From: Pirellulales bacterium
GTDB lineage: Bacteria > Planctomycetota > Planctomycetia > Pirellulales > UBA1268
Assembly (NCBI GenBank): GCA_040397545.1
Contig: JBBAVV010000010.1
Coordinates: forward strand, 14,797 to 78,796
Direction: 5' to 3'
DNA length: 64,000 nucleotides
The notes under the pieces are model-generated. The model did no database searches. It was not told where the DNA came from and worked only from the letters and a program-made list of their open reading frames with translations. Positions 690-12,963 of this stretch are shown piece by piece (position 1 is the stretch's first letter; the number at the start of each line of letters is the position of its first letter). A program made the position numbers and the translations under genes.

Positions 690-706
690 GAGGATTTGAA
701 CTCCCC
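680..706 (-). other. tRNA 3'-half-like fragment (T-arm plus acceptor strand), possible att remnant
   Basis: Minus strand reads GGGGAG-TTCAAAT-CCTCTCAGGAGTCG, a GTTCRAATCC T-loop with an imperfect stem. No D-arm, anticodon arm or CCA seen. Confidence 0.3.
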
Positions 707-821
707 GGCCAAGTGCGCCCAAAACGCCTTCAGCACGCAGCGACGTCAGGCCGCCAGCGTGGCTGCTTCTGATGCTTCCACCTCGGCATGCGCCCGCTGC
801 GGACTCGTATCCTCCACTGCC

Positions 822-2222
822 ATGTTGCTTGAAATCTCCACGACCCATACCCCTGCCGGCGACCTGGGCTACCTGCTCCACAAGCATCCGGGCCGGGTCC
901 AGACTTTCAGGCTGGCGTTTGGCGATGCACACGTCTTCTACCCGGAAGTGACCGCCGATCGCTGTGTCGCGGCCCTGCTCATCGATGTCGACCCGGTGGC
1001 GCTCGTTCGCGGCAAGGGGCGCGAGCGAACGCTGGACCAGTACGTCAATGATCGCCCCTATGTGGCTTCGTCAATGCTCGCGGTGGCCATCGCTCAGGTG
1101 TTCGGAACCGCGCTGGCCGGGAACTGCAAAGACCGCCCTGAGCTGGTGACCACGCCGATCCCCTTGACTGCTCGGATCGCGTCGATTCATTGCAACGGAG
1201 GGGAAGGGCTGTTGAAGAGGCTCTTCGAGCCGCTGGGTTACCGCCTGGCGGTCACCTCGCACATGCTCGATGCGGAGAAGCCGCAATGGGGTGCGTCGTC
1301 TCTGTTCACGGTCGAGATCGATGGGACCCAGACACTGTCGGACCTGCTCAGCCACCTGTACGTGCTTTGCCCCGTTCTCGACAACGAGAAGCACTATTGG
1401 GTGGGCGACGACGAAGTCGCCAAGCTCCTCCGCCACGGCGAGGGATGGCTGGCAAGGCATCCGGAGCGGGAGCTCATCGCCACGAGATACCTGAAGTACC
1501 GACGCAGTCTCGCGACCGATGCGATCAAGCAGTTGCGTGAACAGGACGGCGAAGGACCCGAGGAAATCGAGGCCGATTCGCCAGATGACCCCCGCGAGGA
1601 GGCGGCGGAGCGCCAGCTCAGCCTGCATCAACAGCGGCACGGCACGGTGCTCTCGGTGCTCCAGGCCAAGGGGGCCAAACGCGTCATCGACCTGGGGTGC
1701 GGCGAAGGCAAGCTCGTTCGTGAACTGCTCAGGCACCGGATCTTCGAGAGGATCGTCGGGATGGACGTGGCCCACCGGACGTTGGAAATCGCCGCGGAGC
1801 GCCTCCGCCTGGAGCAGCTTCCGCCGCTGGTCAGGCAGCGTGTGGAGCTCTTCCATGGGTCGCTGATGTACCGCGACAAACGGCTGGAGGGATTCGATGC
1901 CGCCGTGCTGTGCGAGGTGATCGAGCACTTGGACGAGCCGCGGCTTTCGGCGATGGAGCGTGTCGTGTTCGGATTTGCCCGACCCGGCATCATGATCGTG
2001 ACCACGCCCAACAGCGAGTACAACCCGATGTGGGAGAGCCTCGACGCCGGGGCGATGCGCCATCGCGATCACCGTTTCGAGTGGACTCGTCAGCAGTTCC
2101 GCACTTGGGCAAGCGCGGTCTGCGCTCGCTTCGGATACGGTGTCGAGCTTCGGCCAGTCGGGCCGGAAGATCCGAATGTCGGATCCCCAACGCAGATGGG
2201 GGTGTTCACTCGTGCCAGTTGA
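822..2222 (+). CDS. hen1: Bacterial Hen1, 3'-terminal RNA ribose 2'-O-methyltransferase with N-terminal ligase-activating domain
   Basis: Hen1-type N-terminus MLLEISTTHTPAGDLGYLLHKHP and YVNDRPYVASS. C-terminal methyltransferase motifs VIDLGCGEG, EVIEHLD, TTPNSEYN, RHRDHRFEWTR. ATG at 822 is in frame with the 696 ORF. Confidence 0.96.
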   Translation: MLLEISTTHTPAGDLGYLLHKHPGRVQTFRLAFGDAHVFYPEVTADRCVAALLIDVDPVALVRGKGRERTLDQYVNDRPYVASSMLAVAIAQVFGTALAGNCKDRPELVTTPIPLTARIASIHCNGGEGLLKRLFEPLGYRLAVTSHMLDAEKPQWGASSLFTVEIDGTQTLSDLLSHLYVLCPVLDNEKHYWVGDDEVAKLLRHGEGWLARHPERELIATRYLKYRRSLATDAIKQLREQDGEGPEEIEADSPDDPREEAAERQLSLHQQRHGTVLSVLQAKGAKRVIDLGCGEGKLVRELLRHRIFERIVGMDVAHRTLEIAAERLRLEQLPPLVRQRVELFHGSLMYRDKRLEGFDAAVLCEVIEHLDEPRLSAMERVVFGFARPGIMIVTTPNSEYNPMWESLDAGAMRHRDHRFEWTRQQFRTWASAVCARFGYGVELRPVGPEDPNVGSPTQMGVFTRAS

Positions 2223-4833
2223 GATCAAGGTTCCCGAGCTCTCCCTCGTGGTGATGATCGGTGTCTCCGGCTCCGGCAAGAGCACGATCGCGGGCCGACT
2301 GTTCAAGCCGACGGAGATCCTCTCCTCCGACACCTGCCGGGGGTGGGTCTCGGACGACGACAACAATCAGGAGGCCACCGGCGACGCGTTCGAGGTGCTC
2401 CACGCTGTGGCTCGCAAGCGGCTCGCACGGGGCCTGCTGACCGTAGTCGATGCCACGAATGTGCGGGCCGAGGACCGCAAGCCTCTTGTCCAGCTCGCGA
2501 GGGAGTTTCATTGCCTTCCGGTGGCCATCGTGGTCGACACCCCCGCACGCCTCTGCCACGATCGCAACGCGACCCGGCCAGACCGCAGCTTCGGACCTCA
2601 CGTCATCCGCAACCAGAAGATGGCCCTTCGTCAGGGGATGCGTTCACTGGAGCGGGAGGGGTTTCGCCATGTCGTTTTCGTGCGGACTCCAGAGGATTGT
2701 GACGCCGCCACGCTCGTTCGCGAACCACTCTGGAACAACCTCAAACACGAAGCCGGACCGTTCGACATCATCGGTGACGTTCATGGCTGCTACGACGAAC
2801 TGGTCGAACTGCTCGTCACACTCGGGTACACCCTGAGCCAGACGCCCGGCGAGCCCGAGGGAACCTGTGATCTGCTCGGTCCTCCAGGCCCGCCCCGGAA
2901 ACCCGTGTTTGTCGGGGATCTGGTCGACCGCGGCCCCAAGACACCGCCTGTCCTCCGTCTGGTGATGAAACTGGTCCGAGAGGGCAAGGCTCTGTGCGTG
3001 CCCGGCAATCACGACCTCAAGCTGCTCCGGGCTCTGCGGGGCAAGAACGTGCAGATCACGCACGGGCTGGCGGAGTCGCTGGCACAGCTTGGGGCCGAGC
3101 CCGAGGAATTCCGCAAGGACACTTCCTCCTTCATCGACGAGCTCGTGAGCCATTACGTTCTTGATGGCGGCCGTCTTGTCGTAGCGCACGCGGGAATGAA
3201 GGAGTCGATGCAAGGACGGGGCTCGGGGGCCGTCCGGGAGTTTGCCCTGTTCGGGGAGACCACCGGAGAAACCGATGAGTTCGGCCTCCCCATTCGGTAC
3301 GACTGGGCGGCGGAGTATCGGGGCAAGGCAGCCGTGGTGTACGGCCACACGCCCGTGCCAGAGCCCGAATGGCTCAACAACACCCTGTGCATCGATACCG
3401 GATGCGTGTTCGGCGGATCTTTGACCGCGCTTCGCTGGCCGGAGAGGGAGATCGTCTCAGTCTTCGCTCATGCGAAGTACGCCGAGTCGAAGAAGCCCTT
3501 CCTCCCCGCAGAGCAGCTTGCCCGACTGTCGCTGCAACAGCAGCACGACGATGTGCTCGACCTTGACGACATCTCGGGCAAGCGGCAGATCGAAACCGGG
3601 TTGACGCCCACAATCACGGTGCGTCAGGAAAACGCCGCTGCAGCCCTGGAGATCATGAGCCGCTTTGCGGCCGATCCACGGTGGGTCATCTACCTGCCTC
3701 CCACGATGTCGCCGTGCCAAACCAGTCGGGAGCCGGGGATGCTCGAGCATCCCCGGGAGGCATTCGAGTATTTCCGGACCCACGGCGTTGGGCGGGTGAT
3801 CTGCGAAGAAAAACACATGGGATCGCGGGCGGTGGCGATCGTCTGTCGCGAGCCCGAGGTGGCCAGGAAACGGTTCGGTGTCGCCCCACCCGCGGCCACG
3901 TCGGAACGGCTCGGGTCGGACGCGGCCGCAGACACCCTCGGACTCTTCTACACCCGGACAGGCCGACCGTTCTTCAACGACCGTTCGACCGAGCAAACCC
4001 TCCTGCGGCGCCTTCGTGACTCGATCACGAAGTGCGGACTTTGGGATCAACTCCAGACGGACTGGATGTGCCTCGACTGTGAGCTCATGCCCTGGTCGGC
4101 CAAGGCTCAGGCGCTGATCAAGGAGCAATACGCAGCCGTCGGCGTTGCCGCCATGACCGGCCTCCAGGGCAGCGTCGCCGCACTCGAACAGGCCCATTCC
4201 CGTCTCCCGGAAGTGCGGCCCCTTCTGGACCGACATCGCGAACGACTTGAGCTGGTCCGAAAGTACACGGCCGCATACCGGCAGTATTGCTGGGACGTCA
4301 CGACCGTAGACGATCTTCGGCTCGCCCCGTTCCACCTTCTCGCCAGCGAGGGCAAGGTCCACGTTGACCGCGACCATGTCTGGCACATGGAGACGCTGGC
4401 CCGCATCGCGGCCACTGGCGATCCGGTGTTTCTCGCCACGCCCTTCAAGGTCGTCGACCTGTCGAGAGAGGCCGACGAGGAAGAAGGCACGAACTGGTGG
4501 ACGACCCTCACGTCCCGCGGGGGTGAGGGCATGGTGGTCAAACCGCTGGATTTCATCGCCAAAGGACCCCGTGGCCTGCTCCAACCAGCCATCAAAGTCC
4601 GCGGACCAGAGTACCTACGGATCATCTACGGGCCCGAGTACACCCTCCCGGCAAACCTCGACCGTCTTCGATCACGCGGCCTGGGAGCAAAGCGGTCGCT
4701 GGCCACGAAGGAGTTTTCGCTCGGCGTGGAGTCCCTCGAACGGTTTGTCCGGCGGGAACCGCTCCGACGGGTTCACGAGTGTGTCTTCGCGGTGCTCGCC
4801 ATGGAGAGCGAACCTGTCGATCCGCGGCTGTGA
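2212..4833 (+). CDS. pnkp: Polynucleotide kinase-phosphatase-ligase (bacterial Pnkp)
   Basis: P-loop GVSGSGKS. Metallophosphoesterase motifs GDVHGC, GDLVDRGP, GNHD, YGHTP, IDTGC. Ligase motifs EEKHMGSR and EGMVVKP. C-terminal EPVDPRL. Proposed GTG start overlaps the hen1 stop. Confidence 0.96.
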   Translation: MPVEIKVPELSLVVMIGVSGSGKSTIAGRLFKPTEILSSDTCRGWVSDDDNNQEATGDAFEVLHAVARKRLARGLLTVVDATNVRAEDRKPLVQLAREFHCLPVAIVVDTPARLCHDRNATRPDRSFGPHVIRNQKMALRQGMRSLEREGFRHVVFVRTPEDCDAATLVREPLWNNLKHEAGPFDIIGDVHGCYDELVELLVTLGYTLSQTPGEPEGTCDLLGPPGPPRKPVFVGDLVDRGPKTPPVLRLVMKLVREGKALCVPGNHDLKLLRALRGKNVQITHGLAESLAQLGAEPEEFRKDTSSFIDELVSHYVLDGGRLVVAHAGMKESMQGRGSGAVREFALFGETTGETDEFGLPIRYDWAAEYRGKAAVVYGHTPVPEPEWLNNTLCIDTGCVFGGSLTALRWPEREIVSVFAHAKYAESKKPFLPAEQLARLSLQQQHDDVLDLDDISGKRQIETGLTPTITVRQENAAAALEIMSRFAADPRWVIYLPPTMSPCQTSREPGMLEHPREAFEYFRTHGVGRVICEEKHMGSRAVAIVCREPEVARKRFGVAPPAATSERLGSDAAADTLGLFYTRTGRPFFNDRSTEQTLLRRLRDSITKCGLWDQLQTDWMCLDCELMPWSAKAQALIKEQYAAVGVAAMTGLQGSVAALEQAHSRLPEVRPLLDRHRERLELVRKYTAAYRQYCWDVTTVDDLRLAPFHLLASEGKVHVDRDHVWHMETLARIAATGDPVFLATPFKVVDLSREADEEEGTNWWTTLTSRGGEGMVVKPLDFIAKGPRGLLQPAIKVRGPEYLRIIYGPEYTLPANLDRLRSRGLGAKRSLATKEFSLGVESLERFVRREPLRRVHECVFAVLAMESEPVDPRL

Positions 4834-4855
4834 GAACCCTACCGTCGTCGGCGAT

Positions 4856-4896
4856 GCTCACCCCCCCAACCTCTGCCCCGCCCTTGCGGGGACAGG
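4856..4896 (+). repeat. REP-like GC hairpin downstream of pnkp
   Basis: CTG-CCCCGC-cctt-GCGGGG-a-CAG stem-loop preceded by a C-rich tract. No U-tract follows, so it is not a classic intrinsic terminator. Confidence 0.35.
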
Positions 4897-5070
4897 TCAG
4901 GCCGTCCCCACGGGCCCACGCCGAATGGTTGCACGGCCAATTGCCCCAGTCCGCGCGAGAGCCAAAAAAAAGGCTGGCTTTAATCTTTCTACCCGGATAT
5001 CAAGAGCGAGTTGCTTTCGTCCGATCGTCGGACCGATCGCCGGCCGGGGGAGTCCACTTGGGGATGCGCA

Positions 5071-6930
5071 ATGTCCGGTCTGGACCTCGATCGACCCAAT
5101 CAAATCCCCCACGCCTTCCTGACGCTCGTCGGGGCCCGCTCCTGTCCCGGTGTGCCGCTGTGCGGCATCGCGGAACTGCTCGACACCCTCGTGCGGCTCG
5201 CGGGTCGGGAAATCGAGGTTGAGCAGGCCAACAAGGGTCTGACGAACACCTACTCCATCGGCGGCACCACGGCCCGGGCAATCCAGTTCCTGTTCGGAAC
5301 GGGCCTCAAGAGCGGGGCTTTCTCCAACTTGAAGCTCCTCATCGAGGCCGACCCGAGGAGCGTGCTGAAACTGATCACCCTGCACGAGCACGGTGCCCTC
5401 GGCGATCCCGCCGCTCCGCCGCCGAACTCCCTCAACAACCTGCCGCTGGAGTCCGCCCCCCAGTGGGCGATCTCGTGGACGAACTACGCGGGGGTGCACG
5501 AGCGGGCCACCCCGCCCACGGGAGCCGACCCGCTGGACACGTTCAGTGCCGCGCTCAACCCCACCGACCCCGCAACCGCCAGCCGGCAGTTCTGGCCGAC
5601 CATCGCCGAGTACGGGCTGGGTTACAACCTGCTCGTTCTCCAGAAGGTGCGGGGCGGGCAGTTCGCGGTCCTCAAGGCTCTGTTCGGCCCGGCCTGGGCT
5701 CCCGCCTGGGACGCCGCCGCGGCTGCCGGGCTGCTGTACGTGATCGACCTGCGGGTCTTCGAGTCGCTGACCCCGGACACGGCGAACCAGCGGTTCACCC
5801 CCGCCACGGTGACGCTGCTCGCGCAGGACCCTGTGACGAAGGAACTGCGCGCCGTGGCCGTGCGGGTCACGGCCCAGGGCGGCACGCAGGTGCAGGTGTA
5901 CGTGGAGTCGAGTCCGGCCTGGCTGTACGGGCTCCAGGCCGCCCGGACGTCCGTCACGGTGTACGGCATCTGGCTCGGCCACGTCTACCACTGGCACATC
6001 GTCACCGCGGCCATGTTCCTGGCCGCGGGCGAGACGCTCCCGGACGGCAGCGGGGGCACGCCGGTTCACCCCATCCGGCAACTGCTCGACCCCCAGTCAC
6101 AGTATCTGGCTGCGTTCGACGAGGTGCTGCTGCTGCTGTGGTCTTACGTCGCCCCTCCAACCTCCGTGGCCACCTCCTGGGACTTCCTGCGGCTGATGAG
6201 CCACTTCGCCACCGGCCGCGGTTATTTCATGGACGACCCGAAGGCGACCCTCGACCGCCACGGCATCACCGAGGCCGACTTCTCGGCGCAGTCGCCGTGG
6301 GACCGTTACCCGATCGTGCGGACGTTCCTCGCCGTCTGGGACGCGACGGCGGCATACGTGGCGGCGTTCGTCGATCACACCTACACCCCCGCACACCCCC
6401 CCGCCGCGGACGCCGCTCTCCAGGCGTGGGTGAACGCCGCCGCCGACCCGAGCGTCGGGAACGTCCCGGGGCTGCCGGCCGGGGTCGGCACCAACGACGA
6501 GTTGAAGCCCCTGCTGACGAGCCTGATCTACCGCGTGACCATGCACGGCGCGGCGCGCCTCCTCTCGACCGCGAACCCCGGGCTGACGTTCGTGGCGAAC
6601 TACCCGCCGTGCCTTCAAAACCTGACGGTTCCGGACCCGGGCACACCGCTCACGCCGGCGGCGCTGTTCGAGTACCTGCCGCGGACGGGCACGATCGGTG
6701 GAATGGTGAAATTCTATTACACCTTCTCGTTCTCGCGGCCGTACGAGCCGTTCGTCCCGGAGTACGGGCTCGACGCGAACCTGTTCTTCCCGGGCGGGGC
6801 GGACGAGCCCCGCAACGCGGCGTTGATCGCGTACCGCCGGGTCGTCCAGGACCTGATCGACCAGTTGTCGCCGGTGTCGCCGCCGAACCAGTCGCAGCGG
6901 TATCAGTGGCCGCGATCGATCGAAACCTGA
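5071..6930 (+). CDS. Divergent lipoxygenase-family (non-heme metal) protein, 619 aa
   Basis: Colinear lipoxygenase-like motifs: GLLYVIDL, KELRAVAVRV, WLGHVYHWH (Hx4H), HPIRQLLDP, YP..VWDATAAYV, LQAW, LTSLIYRVTMHGAA, VANYPP, and C-terminal WPRSIET (compare IPNSISI). Confidence 0.8.
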   Translation: MSGLDLDRPNQIPHAFLTLVGARSCPGVPLCGIAELLDTLVRLAGREIEVEQANKGLTNTYSIGGTTARAIQFLFGTGLKSGAFSNLKLLIEADPRSVLKLITLHEHGALGDPAAPPPNSLNNLPLESAPQWAISWTNYAGVHERATPPTGADPLDTFSAALNPTDPATASRQFWPTIAEYGLGYNLLVLQKVRGGQFAVLKALFGPAWAPAWDAAAAAGLLYVIDLRVFESLTPDTANQRFTPATVTLLAQDPVTKELRAVAVRVTAQGGTQVQVYVESSPAWLYGLQAARTSVTVYGIWLGHVYHWHIVTAAMFLAAGETLPDGSGGTPVHPIRQLLDPQSQYLAAFDEVLLLLWSYVAPPTSVATSWDFLRLMSHFATGRGYFMDDPKATLDRHGITEADFSAQSPWDRYPIVRTFLAVWDATAAYVAAFVDHTYTPAHPPAADAALQAWVNAAADPSVGNVPGLPAGVGTNDELKPLLTSLIYRVTMHGAARLLSTANPGLTFVANYPPCLQNLTVPDPGTPLTPAALFEYLPRTGTIGGMVKFYYTFSFSRPYEPFVPEYGLDANLFFPGGADEPRNAALIAYRRVVQDLIDQLSPVSPPNQSQRYQWPRSIET

Positions 6931-6944
6931 TCGGGGCCCTCTTC

Positions 6945-6984
6945 GTGATCGCGGCCGACCATCGCGGTGCCGCCCCGTTGAAGC
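6945..6984 (+). repeat. Solitary hairpin resembling a degenerate type I-G (I-U) CRISPR repeat
   Basis: GTGATCGCGGCCGACCATCGCGGTGCCGCCCCGTTGAAGC, with a GCGGC/GCCGC stem and the 3' end CCCCGTTGAAGC. Single copy only. Confidence 0.3.
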
Positions 6985-7136
6985 GCGCCGCTTGAGCCTC
7001 CGCCTGTGTCTCCCGCTCGCGGCCCGCCGACCGACTGGGCCGAGCTTGTCGAGGTCGAGGACCCTGACCCAGGCGCTCGTGTTTACCTCCCTCACGAACG
7101 AATGGCGACGGCCCACGGAAAAGGTCCGCGCCGGCC

Positions 7137-7940
7137 TCACAGTCCCGTCAGCGGGACCGTGAGCCCGTCGTAGGCCAGCTCCATGCCGGGAGGGAGCTGC
7201 GCCGAGACCGCACGGTGGGAGATGTCGTGCGAGAAGTGGAGGAAGAGCGTTCGCTTCGCCCCCACGCGCCGCGCCACCTCGACCGACTCTTCCAGCGAAA
7301 AATGCGTCGGATGACGGGTGTGCCGAAGGCAGTCGAGGACGAGAACGTCGAGCCCCGCCAGCCGCTCGAACGTCTCCTCCGGTATGAGGTTCGTGTCGGT
7401 GCAATAGGCGACGTCGCCAAAGCGGAAGCCGAGAACGTCGAAGACGCCGTGCCGGAGCCGGAGCGGCACGACGCGGCAGCCGAGGAGGTCGAAAGGCGCG
7501 GTCGTGATCCGCGAGAATTCGAGCTTCGGCACGCCCCCACCGGGAAGCGGCATCGGCAGGAAGGCGTAGTCGAAGGCCCGGCGGATCCGATCCTCGACGA
7601 GCACCTCGCAGTAGACCGGGATCGGCCCGCCGCGCGCGAAACAGAGTGGCCGGACGTCGTCGAGGCCGTAGAGATGGTCGATATGCTCGTGCGTGTAGAG
7701 CACCGCGTCGACCCGGCCGATCCGCTCCCGGAGGAGTTGGGCGCGGAGATCGGGGGTCGTGTCAACCAGGAGCGTGCCCCCGGGGAGCCCCAACAGGACG
7801 CTCGTCCGCGTCCGCCGGTCACGCGGGTCGTCGCTCGTGCAGACCGGACAGGCACACCCCACCATCGGCACGCCGACGCTCGTGCCGGTGCCGAGGAAGA
7901 GCATCTCGCCAGCGGGATCGCGAAACGGGGATGCGGCCAT
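7137..7940 (-). CDS. MBL-fold metallo-hydrolase (PhnP/YycJ-like phosphodiesterase)
   Basis: LGTGTSVGVP, CACPVC, THEHIDHLYGLDD (HxHxDH), YCTD, HPTHF, HFSH. Confidence 0.9.
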   Translation of the reverse strand: MAASPFRDPAGEMLFLGTGTSVGVPMVGCACPVCTSDDPRDRRTRTSVLLGLPGGTLLVDTTPDLRAQLLRERIGRVDAVLYTHEHIDHLYGLDDVRPLCFARGGPIPVYCEVLVEDRIRRAFDYAFLPMPLPGGGVPKLEFSRITTAPFDLLGCRVVPLRLRHGVFDVLGFRFGDVAYCTDTNLIPEETFERLAGLDVLVLDCLRHTRHPTHFSLEESVEVARRVGAKRTLFLHFSHDISHRAVSAQLPPGMELAYDGLTVPLTGL

Positions 7941-7983
7941 GACTGAAAAACTCTGGGGTGGCCGGGGCATCGTAGCAGCCCGC

Positions 7984-9207
7984 TCACGGCGCAGTGAGCC
8001 GGGCCTCGAGCCAGGGGGCGATCGCCGTGAACCAGGCTTCGGCATGGCGGCGCTGACCGGCACCACTGAAGTGCACCCCACGCCCACCGGAGTCTCGGAG
8101 AAGGCCCTGCAGGGCGTCCGTGTCGGGGCCGGGAAGAGCGAGGCCGTCGCGGCAGACGGCTGCCTGCGCCGCCCGGATGTCGGTCGACGATTCATCGCCG
8201 GGGACATGGTACGTGGCCCGGGCGACAAACCAAGGGTGTTCGCGGCCGAGTTCGACGCCAGCAGCTTGAATGACGCGCCCGAGCATCGCTTCGTAGAGCG
8301 GCCCTGGCAGCGTGCGCGACCGGTCTTGTTGGTTGGCGTCGCTCTCTCCCTGATGCCAGAGCACCGCCCGGAAGCCGGTCGGCTCCAACTGCTTCATGCG
8401 GCCAACGAGCATGGCGAACGCCGCGCCGTCACTCTCAAAGCCCCCGCCGGCCACGGGGCGGACCCGTGCGGTGATTGTCGGCGGGGCCGGGAACCGACTC
8501 CCCTCCGGAAGCCATTCGCGGACACTCGTCGCGCCGATCCCGCAGGCAACCAGGCCGATCGGGACGTTGAGCTCGGCCTCGAGCCTGTCACCGAGCGCCG
8601 GCAGGAAACTCCCCCCGTCGCCGCTGGCCCCCGGCTGCGGATCGGCCGCCACGCGCCACACCCCCTCGGGATCGAGCGCCACGACCCGATCAGTCGCCGG
8701 GGCGAGCCGCTCCTCGCCGTGGTTGGCGGAGTTTGATTGACCGGCGACGATGAACACCTCGCCGACCCCGACCCGCTCCACCGTCGTCATACCCATGACG
8801 GCCCCCTCGATAACCGACCTGACTTCGAGCCGATGCCATCCCCCCGCCGGTGCGGCGAGGAGGCCGGTAAACGTCCCCCCTTTCCGCGTGAGCGTATGCC
8901 ACGGGGCATCGATCGCCAGGGCAACGCGGGCCTCGATCGCTCCCGCCTCGGGGACTTCGGCGCGCACCTCGACGGGAATGGCCCCGCCGGCGCGATCGTG
9001 CCGCTGCACCACGGCCCACTCCACCGGCCGGACGATCCGCAGGGCCGCGCCCTCGGGCTCCGGCTCGGCGCCATGGGCCAGCAGAGGCGCGACGCCGAGG
9101 GCCAAAAGCAGGGCGACCCGCGGCCGCAGCCGGAATCCGGGCCAACACCCAGCCGCCCCTGAAGCCCGCGGGAAACAGCAGTCGATTCCGTTCCATGGTC
9201 GTGCCAT
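7984..9207 (-). CDS. Secreted sialate O-acetylesterase-like (SASA/SGNH) carbohydrate esterase
   Basis: AGQSNS, LWHQGESDA, GVHFS motifs and a hydrophobic signal-like segment. GAGGAG RBS precedes the ATG at 9207. Confidence 0.82.
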   Translation of the reverse strand: MARPWNGIDCCFPRASGAAGCWPGFRLRPRVALLLALGVAPLLAHGAEPEPEGAALRIVRPVEWAVVQRHDRAGGAIPVEVRAEVPEAGAIEARVALAIDAPWHTLTRKGGTFTGLLAAPAGGWHRLEVRSVIEGAVMGMTTVERVGVGEVFIVAGQSNSANHGEERLAPATDRVVALDPEGVWRVAADPQPGASGDGGSFLPALGDRLEAELNVPIGLVACGIGATSVREWLPEGSRFPAPPTITARVRPVAGGGFESDGAAFAMLVGRMKQLEPTGFRAVLWHQGESDANQQDRSRTLPGPLYEAMLGRVIQAAGVELGREHPWFVARATYHVPGDESSTDIRAAQAAVCRDGLALPGPDTDALQGLLRDSGGRGVHFSGAGQRRHAEAWFTAIAPWLEARLTAP

Positions 9208-9456
9208 AAAAGACTCCTCGACCCCGTTTCGCCTTGACCGATGGCGCGCAATACGGCGACAATCCGCTGGTGGCGGCAACGGAATCCGCCCAGCTTACCC
9301 GGTCCAGCCGCAGCTACCGGGCCCCCACGGCCCGGAGGAGTGCCGTCGTTTCCGTTCGGTCCGGTCGCCGGCCGGAGGGCGTGGACGGCGTCCAATCCTC
9401 CCTTCACCGGCACCGGCCGACCCTCTTTTCCGCCCCGCCGAACGAAACGACGCACG

Positions 9457-12963
<3,507 letters not shown>

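Follow-up and report, generated by a model that had tools for sequence, protein, structure and literature searches.

Does a bacterial protein that keeps the metal-binding histidines of a lipoxygenase (LOX) but changes the residues around them remain a LOX, and what could it do? The question is raised by a gene at 5071..6930 on the forward strand of the window, a stretch of 64,000 nucleotides from a Pirellulales bacterium (contig JBBAVV010000010.1). The gene is complete and encodes a 619-aa protein, hereafter P0001, with a LOX fold and no PLAT domain. A sequence-only reading of this DNA, made without database searches, had described the product as a highly divergent LOX-like protein with a non-canonical metal and substrate site. 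We establish here the fold, the homology to LOXs, the conservation of the residues concerned and the purifying selection acting on the gene. Our favoured explanation, which we consider probable, is that P0001 is a 'mini' LOX from a large prokaryotic clade, which would bind Fe or Mn and act by LOX-type radical chemistry on a substrate that is hydrophobic and associated with the membrane.

The gene is intact. Its frame opens with an ATG at 5071 and runs through 619 codons without internal stop up to the stop codon at 6928-6930. The longest possible open reading frame (ORF) in this frame starts at a TTG located 60 nt upstream of the ATG; the Met at 5071 is also the start in the closest homologues, which are 99, 96 and 95% identical to P0001. 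Gene and window share a G+C content of 69%, and the G+C fraction at third codon positions reaches 0.91 in this frame. Comparison with three close relatives yielded ratios of non-synonymous to synonymous substitution rates (dN/dS) of 0.05, 0.21 and 0.28, which places the gene under purifying selection. A decaying gene with substitutions private to this copy, an alternative raised by the sequence-only reading itself, is ruled out by these ratios and by the family-wide occurrence of the substitutions.

In sequence searches the homology of P0001 to LOXs is real but weak when the single sequence is used. The Pfam Lipoxygenase profile (PF00305) matched P0001 with 16.6 bits (E-value 0.0028), which does not reach the gathering cut-off of 23.6 bits, an operational threshold and not a biological feature. 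No other domain was found in the Pfam scan, and the NCBIfam search returned a chance-level match only. The best match of P0001 in the PDB was human ALOX15B, with an E-value of 1.5e-6 using phmmer. The relation to LOXs was upheld by the family profile. A profile called A1, built from 68 family members, was searched against the PDB with hmmsearch and retrieved 54 matches, every one of them a LOX, with ALOX15B on top (E-value 1.3e-23). An HHalign comparison of the family profile with five canonical-like LOXs encoded in genomes of the window's own phylum gave a probability of 99.8 and an E-value of 1e-28. Moreover, PF00305 was matched at E <= 1e-3 by 64 of the 68 aligned family members, and some members bear the NCBI label 'lipoxygenase family protein'. 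P0001 is divergent, but the family around it is one that Pfam recognises and NCBI names.

The structural comparison was made with an AlphaFold2 model of P0001 (predicted local distance difference test score, pLDDT, of 93; predicted template modelling score, pTM, of 0.94). The model is helical from residue 14 onward, with short strands only according to DSSP. The top Foldseek matches were LOXs throughout, with E-values of about 1e-17 and template modelling (TM) scores of 0.55-0.61. VIA-align superposed the model on LOX catalytic domains with a Z-score of 27.3 over 489 aligned residues and a root-mean-square deviation of 3.5 Å; 132 chains were found at Z >= 8, and all 50 entries among the matches listed were LOXs. 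Since the superposition of residues 7-619 involves only the catalytic domain, which begins at about residue 140 in animal LOXs and spans 27-569 in the cyanobacterial CspLOX2, P0001 is devoid of a PLAT domain, in agreement with the sequence-only reading. Residue 619 pairs with the chain ends of 5-LOX (673), ALOX15B (676), soybean LOX-1 (839), CspLOX2 (569) and PA-LOX (685), the last residue of a LOX chain being its metal-ligating C-terminus. As modelled, P0001 has the LOX catalytic fold from end to end.

Conservation was then counted over 172 sequences of at least 540 aa, selected from 267 by leaving out 95 shorter fragments. The residues previously singled out are all present in the translation (HVYHWH at 304-309, TMHGAAR, S499 and the SIET end). 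The segment H304-V-Y-H307-W-H309 (5980..5997, forward strand) contains the two predicted metal ligands of the Hx4H motif, H304 and H309, both of which are kept in 172 of 172 sequences. W308 is found in 159 of them and H307 in 130, with Gln in 25. H307 had been regarded as an extra, unusual His within the motif; this did not hold, as H304, H307 and H309 align with H373, H376 and H378 of ALOX15B using either phmmer or hmmsearch. The predicted third His ligand, H492 (171/172), is located in the segment R488-x3-H492-G-x-x-R496 (6532..6558, forward strand), between two conserved Arg at i-4 and i+4. R488 and G493 are each kept in 169 sequences and R496 in 164, the replacements of the latter being Ser (4), Asn (2), His (1) and Asp (1). 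In the model, one helix spans residues 475-496 (DSSP), and R488, H492 and R496, being spaced i, i+4 and i+8 on it, would therefore lie on the same face.

The C-terminal segment S616-I-E618-T619 (6916..6927, forward strand) carries the terminal carboxylate, for which a role as fourth metal ligand is predicted. Of its residues, E618 occurs in 168 sequences and T619 in 155 (Leu in 10, Ile in 2, Ala in 2); family tails end in NIET (104 of 172), NVET (20) or SIET (17). We take the canonical tail to be P-N-S-I-S-I. Counted from the conserved Pro, the family tail P-x-N-I-E-T is equally long, and the penultimate Ser would therefore be replaced by an invariant Glu in the family. Among the R, S and T substitutions pointed out in the sequence-only reading, R496 and T619 thus recur across the homologues, but S499 does not: this position, at +7 from H492, is variable and holds Ser in only 24 sequences (Ala 35, Pro 34, Arg 19, Asn 19, Gln 11).

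The assignment of R496 and L353 to canonical sites has to be weighed with the register of the alignments. In the favoured register, H492 corresponds to the third His and R496 to the fifth-ligand position, which is occupied by Ser, Asn or His in canonical LOXs. We favour it for three reasons. First, the homologue P0240 (743 aa, 28% identical to P0001) bridges the alignments of P0001 and CspLOX2: its H-T-W-T-N aligns with 'qHaavN' of CspLOX2, and the H and N of this H-x3-N align with H492 and R496 of P0001. Second, the rare replacements observed at 496 include the very residues Ser, Asn and His. Third, the small residues following H492, H-G-x-S in the family, mimic the canonical H-A-A-V. Conversely, direct HMMER and HHalign alignments open a one-residue gap and shift H492 to the residue preceding the canonical third His. 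This alternative register is disfavoured because an invariant Gly would then replace the canonical ligand beside an invariant His. Four residues beyond the third His, P0001 has Arg in place of Asn, His or Ser, which occur there in only 7 of the 172 homologues. For the Coffa position, occupied by Ala or Gly, HHalign points to L353 (6127..6129, forward strand): this Leu, the first one behind F-D-x-V, is matched to the Ala of canonical I-N-x-x-A ('iN~~a'). Its conservation in A1 is at least 90%. Phmmer and hmmsearch leave a gap at this segment, and the conserved L353 occupies the Coffa site probably, but not certainly.

The Arg pair, the Glu and the probable Coffa-site Leu were encountered in none of the canonical sequences aligned, and in the alignments made the metal environment of the family differs from that of every solved LOX. 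The distinct LOX-like clade suggested by the sequence-only reading is well supported, the R, E-T and L substitutions being family-wide and the gene under purifying selection; the same is true of its statement that the Hx4H pair and the third His are kept.

The N-termini of the 172 homologues were sorted by a crude, hydropathy-based classification. In 120 of them, as in P0001, the N-terminus is short and without signal. One N-terminal transmembrane helix was predicted in 13 (P0125, P0126, P0129 and others), several transmembrane helices in 10 (P0169, P0178, P0184, P0199 and others), a Tat-like twin-arginine signal in 14 (P0062, P0079, P0107, P0127 and others) and another extension in 15. Neither a signal peptide, as already noted from the sequence, nor a transmembrane anchor or Tat-like signal was detected at the N-terminus of P0001. 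N-terminal membrane tethering in some members would fit a lipid substrate, and the Tat-like signals would fit the export of a folded, cofactor-loaded protein.

From these elements we infer ligand roles, metal binding, a substrate class and a chemistry for P0001. The primary predicted metal site appears to be retained, with three His (H304, H309 and H492) and the terminal carboxylate group of T619 as ligands, and would bind Fe or Mn. The fifth-ligand Asn, His or Ser would be replaced by R496, with R488 a helix turn away from H492 in the opposite direction, E618 in the penultimate position and most likely a Leu, L353, at the Coffa position. The reaction may consist of hydrogen abstraction and O2 insertion, or of the transformation of a hydroperoxide. 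A cationic, charge-compensated R496/E618 second sphere together with a bulky Coffa residue could shift the positioning of the substrate, the redox tuning of the metal or the product outcome. The replacement of Asn by Arg combined with that of Ser by Glu would be charge-neutral, and a salt bridge between R496 and E618 clamping the C-terminal tail would be a simple structural reading; the pair could be a charge-compensated structural replacement only. An altered chemistry with respect to textbook LOXs, for which the sequence-only reading named another metal, an isomerase or a substrate other than a polyunsaturated fatty acid, is plausible from the residues. A residue other than Asn or His at the fifth-ligand site does not in itself imply new chemistry, because ALOX15B, presumably an active dioxygenase, has a Ser there.

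The family is large and its distribution is patchy: it is rare within the window's own phylum, yet present in many phyla overall. A word-indexed search in which 8,000 candidates were scored retrieved at least 682 homologous proteins at E <= 1e-3. Among 50%-identity representatives, an exhaustive search retrieved 420 at E <= 1e-3, a number that falls to 256 when the limit is set at 1e-10 and to 126 when it is set at 1e-30. In the contigs of 185,579 species genomes (one per species), 219 genome stretches matched the search patterns and 186 were confirmed as relatives, of which the best 80 were kept. These 80 loci belong to Planctomycetota, Acidobacteriota, Chloroflexota, Bacteroidota, Actinomycetota, Alphaproteobacteria, Verrucomicrobiota, Gemmatimonadota and one chromosome of a Nitrosopumilus metagenome-assembled genome (MAG). 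The Bacteroidota loci include the cultured Dokdonia pacifica DSM 25597 (L035) and D. ponticola (L043). Among 301 sampled genomes of the window's own phylum, a strong family match was found in the genome of the window only (860 bits) and in none of the 300 others, consistent with the patchy distribution of bacterial LOXs mentioned in the sequence-only reading. Five of these 300 genomes gave weak matches of 47-72 bits, corresponding to ORFs with canonical-like LOX tails. One of them (L083:2035-4311, reverse strand) has the tail SQSIAT and thus also a C-terminal Thr, and the tails of the other four end in Ile or Val. The window's own assembly (5.14 Mb, 94% complete) contains a single copy of the family; a PF00305 search of this assembly gave no match, a weak negative since control genomes were equally blank.

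Some of the source labels deserve comment. Three loci (L001, L002 and L078), with close or distant homologues of P0001, come from MAGs titled 'Candidatus Kuenenia stuttgartiensis', and the L001 protein is 99% identical to P0001. We take the G+C content of Kuenenia to be much lower than the 69% of the window, and these species labels look doubtful. Other close relatives carry the titles Planctomycetaceae or Planctomycetota. The Nitrosopumilus chromosome (OZ244033.1) contains two copies of a LOX-like gene (L052 and L070), whose product is 41% identical to P0001 and ends in QWPLNIET. Each copy is embedded in a block of about 5.8 kb (locus coordinates about 4700-10500); the two blocks are 100% identical and have different flanks. 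The G+C fraction of the gene is 0.35 and that of its flanks 0.35-0.36. The gene is apparently native to this chromosome; an assembly duplication or a binning error is possible.

Within the window, the P0001 gene is directly preceded by a complete bacterial RNA-repair cassette (696-4833, forward strand), in which the domain scan identified Hen1 (Hen1_L and methyltransferase; 696-2222, forward strand) and Pnkp (kinase, phosphatase and ligase domains; 2140-4833, forward strand). Downstream, on the strand opposite to the P0001 gene, are an MBL-fold hydrolase (7137-8228) and a SASA esterase, beyond which SecA and a Kdo transferase are found. Neither a sigma-70-like promoter nor an intrinsic terminator was detected near the P0001 gene.

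To characterise the genomic context of the family, the 3,790 ORFs of the 80 loci were clustered. The LOX cluster was present in 80 of 80 loci and antisense shadow ORFs in 52, the next cluster in 10. A Pfam search on 66 of the 145 nearest-neighbour ORFs, covering 36 loci (L002, L035 and L040-L080 being left out), found no family in more than 3 loci. As the LOX-like gene is usually solitary, its context gives no clue to the substrate. An AhpC peroxiredoxin stands beside the LOX-like gene in the Nitrosopumilus loci only, about 0.5 kb upstream on the opposite strand, with a small ORF in between. In some Actinomycetota and in one Thermoanaerobaculia locus, apparent 'tandem LOX paralogues' upstream turned out to be a clustering artefact: the two ORFs scanned encode AAA_16 signalling proteins, which also carry an adenylate/guanylate cyclase domain in one case and GAF/PAS/sigma-54 activator domains in the other. 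Large ORFs lie directly upstream of the LOX-like gene on the same strand in L046 (2499-5846) and L033 (3-5483), and similar long upstream ORFs were seen in L053, L076, L080, L064 and L060. The upstream AAA_16 ORF may be a lineage-specific regulator.

The gene was also looked for in sequencing libraries. Among the 24 runs listed, 20 (from 17 studies) hold at least part of it. Half or more of the sampled words were present in 16 DNA runs, whose labels read freshwater, lake water, aquatic or simply 'metagenome'; two of these runs may be the window's own source. Metatranscriptome contigs from four freshwater runs (four studies), 92-99% alike, cover parts of 5007-7115. None of them covers 4300-4983 or 7150-7700, a gap in cover that does not constitute evidence.

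Several of these observations speak against the proposal of a LOX-type enzyme acting on a membrane-associated substrate. R496 and E618 do not strictly co-vary, since E618 is retained in five members in which R496 is replaced by Ser, Asn or His. The neighbours of P0001 in the window (RNA repair, MBL-fold hydrolase, SecA) are functionally unrelated to it, and no conserved neighbour gene hinting at a lipid pathway emerged from the 80 clustered loci or from the 36 loci scanned with Pfam. The contigs from RNA libraries do not prove transcription of the gene.

Beside this proposal we weighed a more far-reaching reading and three rival explanations. In the former, an Arg-flanked, Glu-capped metal centre and a blocked Coffa site could serve a chemistry foreign to textbook LOXs, in organisms without classical substrates; we regard this as possible but doubtful, and candidate reactions would be the oxidation or isomerisation of a membrane lipid other than a polyunsaturated fatty acid (PUFA), or of an anionic substrate. 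It is unlikely, in our view, that P0001 is an ordinary PUFA dioxygenase that tolerates the substitutions and produces fatty-acid hydroperoxides as do other bacterial mini-LOXs, CspLOX2 among them. Such an enzyme would agree with the retention of the three His and of the C-terminal carboxylate position, with the full-length fold common to active LOXs including CspLOX2 (Z 26.6), with the Ser of ALOX15B at or near the position of R496 in what we assume to be an active enzyme, and with the match of nearly all aligned family members to Pfam Lipoxygenase. It fits less well with the near-invariance of two Arg and one Glu near the metal and with the probable Coffa-site Leu, all foreign to the canonical LOXs aligned, or with the missing export signal in most members, P0001 included. 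In addition, most host phyla of the family are, to our knowledge, not known to produce PUFAs.

We hold it highly improbable that the LOX fold was recruited for a non-lipid anionic small molecule, held by R488 and R496 at a centre made of three His and one carboxylate. The two conserved Arg do share the helix of H492, at i-4 and i+4, and the host taxa are very different in lipid make-up, down to the Nitrosopumilus MAG chromosome; but a membrane or lipid environment is suggested by the N-terminal membrane anchors of 23 of the 172 members, and the entire LOX helical core, which forms a hydrophobic channel in known LOXs, is retained. The least credible explanation is a pseudo-enzyme, devoid of catalysis or of metal, whose LOX fold would serve a structural, binding or regulatory purpose: a positive Arg at the fifth-ligand site could disfavour a metal and no operon partner was found, but the invariance of all four primary ligand positions across many phyla would be difficult to account for in a protein that holds no metal, the gene is under strong purifying selection, and the Tat-type signals of 14 of the 172 members suggest cofactor-loaded export.

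The proposal of a mini LOX was finally confronted with the published record. Bacterial LOXs are described in fewer than 0.5% of sequenced bacterial species in the available extract of PMC6612559, and LOXs as undetected in archaea in that of PMC12993299. A 2026 review (PMC13319228), also available in extract, counts more than 4,700 bacterial LOX sequences, of which under 0.5% are characterised, and cites from a 2022 review nine phylogenetic clusters of bacterial LOXs. The extract available of a preprint on the ecology of bacterial LOXs (10.1101/2022.06.21.497025) makes no mention of Planctomycetes, Acidobacteria, Bacteroidetes or catalytic ligands. In the literature covered, no report was found on this clade, on archaeal LOXs or on a LOX whose fifth-ligand site is occupied by Arg; the 2022 nine-cluster review may list the clade. 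The clade is thus already LOX-like by database name, and neither a characterised member nor a description of its active-site variant was found in that literature. LOX membership and the database name were known; the conserved non-canonical second sphere in a PLAT-less clade of the LOX superfamily appears, as far as the literature covered reaches, to be new.

Bacterial LOXs are described as rare; the present family is large, reaches into many phyla and occurs on one archaeal chromosome. If active, its members would widen the repertoire of ligands and second-sphere residues of LOX catalysis, might offer new regio- or chemoselectivities for the oxyfunctionalisation of fatty acids, and would raise the question of the role of a cytoplasmic LOX in bacteria not known as PUFA makers. 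The homologues present in cultured Dokdonia strains give direct experimental access.

Among known systems, human ALOX15B (15-lipoxygenase-2; PDB 4NRE, 7LAF) is the top PDB match by sequence, and shares with P0001 the H-x-x-H-x-H motif (HLLHSH). It carries Ser, and not Asn or His, at or next to the position of R496 in the phmmer alignment. It differs by its N-terminal PLAT domain, the alignment beginning at its residue 147, and by the absence of an Arg pair around the third His. Its tail presumably ends in Ile and its Coffa position is presumably Ala. The PA-LOX (LoxA) of Pseudomonas aeruginosa (PDB 4G32, 5IR4) is bacterial and PLAT-less like P0001. It gave the highest Foldseek TM-scores to P0001 (0.61/0.60), and a VIA-align Z-score of about 25 over residues 1-619. 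We take PA-LOX to be secreted or periplasmic, with canonical ligands, whereas P0001 has no signal peptide and a variant second sphere. The fungal manganese LOXs (PDB 5FNO, 5FX8) also have a PLAT-less LOX fold, with Z-scores of 24.6-24.7 to the model of P0001. They are devoid of the Arg and Glu substitutions of the P0001 family. Their ligands are, we assume, the canonical His/His/His/Asn and C-terminal set. Because these fungal enzymes hold Mn with the same ligand set, the metal cannot be read from the sequence of P0001. Finally, CspLOX2 of Cyanothece sp. PCC 8801 (PDB 5MED, 5MEE, 5MEF, 5MEG) consists, like P0001, of the catalytic domain only (569 versus 619 aa). The two folds superpose over residues 7-619 of P0001 and 27-569 of CspLOX2 with Z-scores of 26.4-26.6 (VIA-align), and both proteins have the Hx4H pair and, by prediction for P0001, a third His ligand and a C-terminal one. 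With an identity of 16-17%, they are distinguished by the canonical H-A-A-V-N of CspLOX2 against H-G-A-A-R in P0001, and by the N-I-E-T tail, R488 and the probable Coffa-site Leu on the side of the family.

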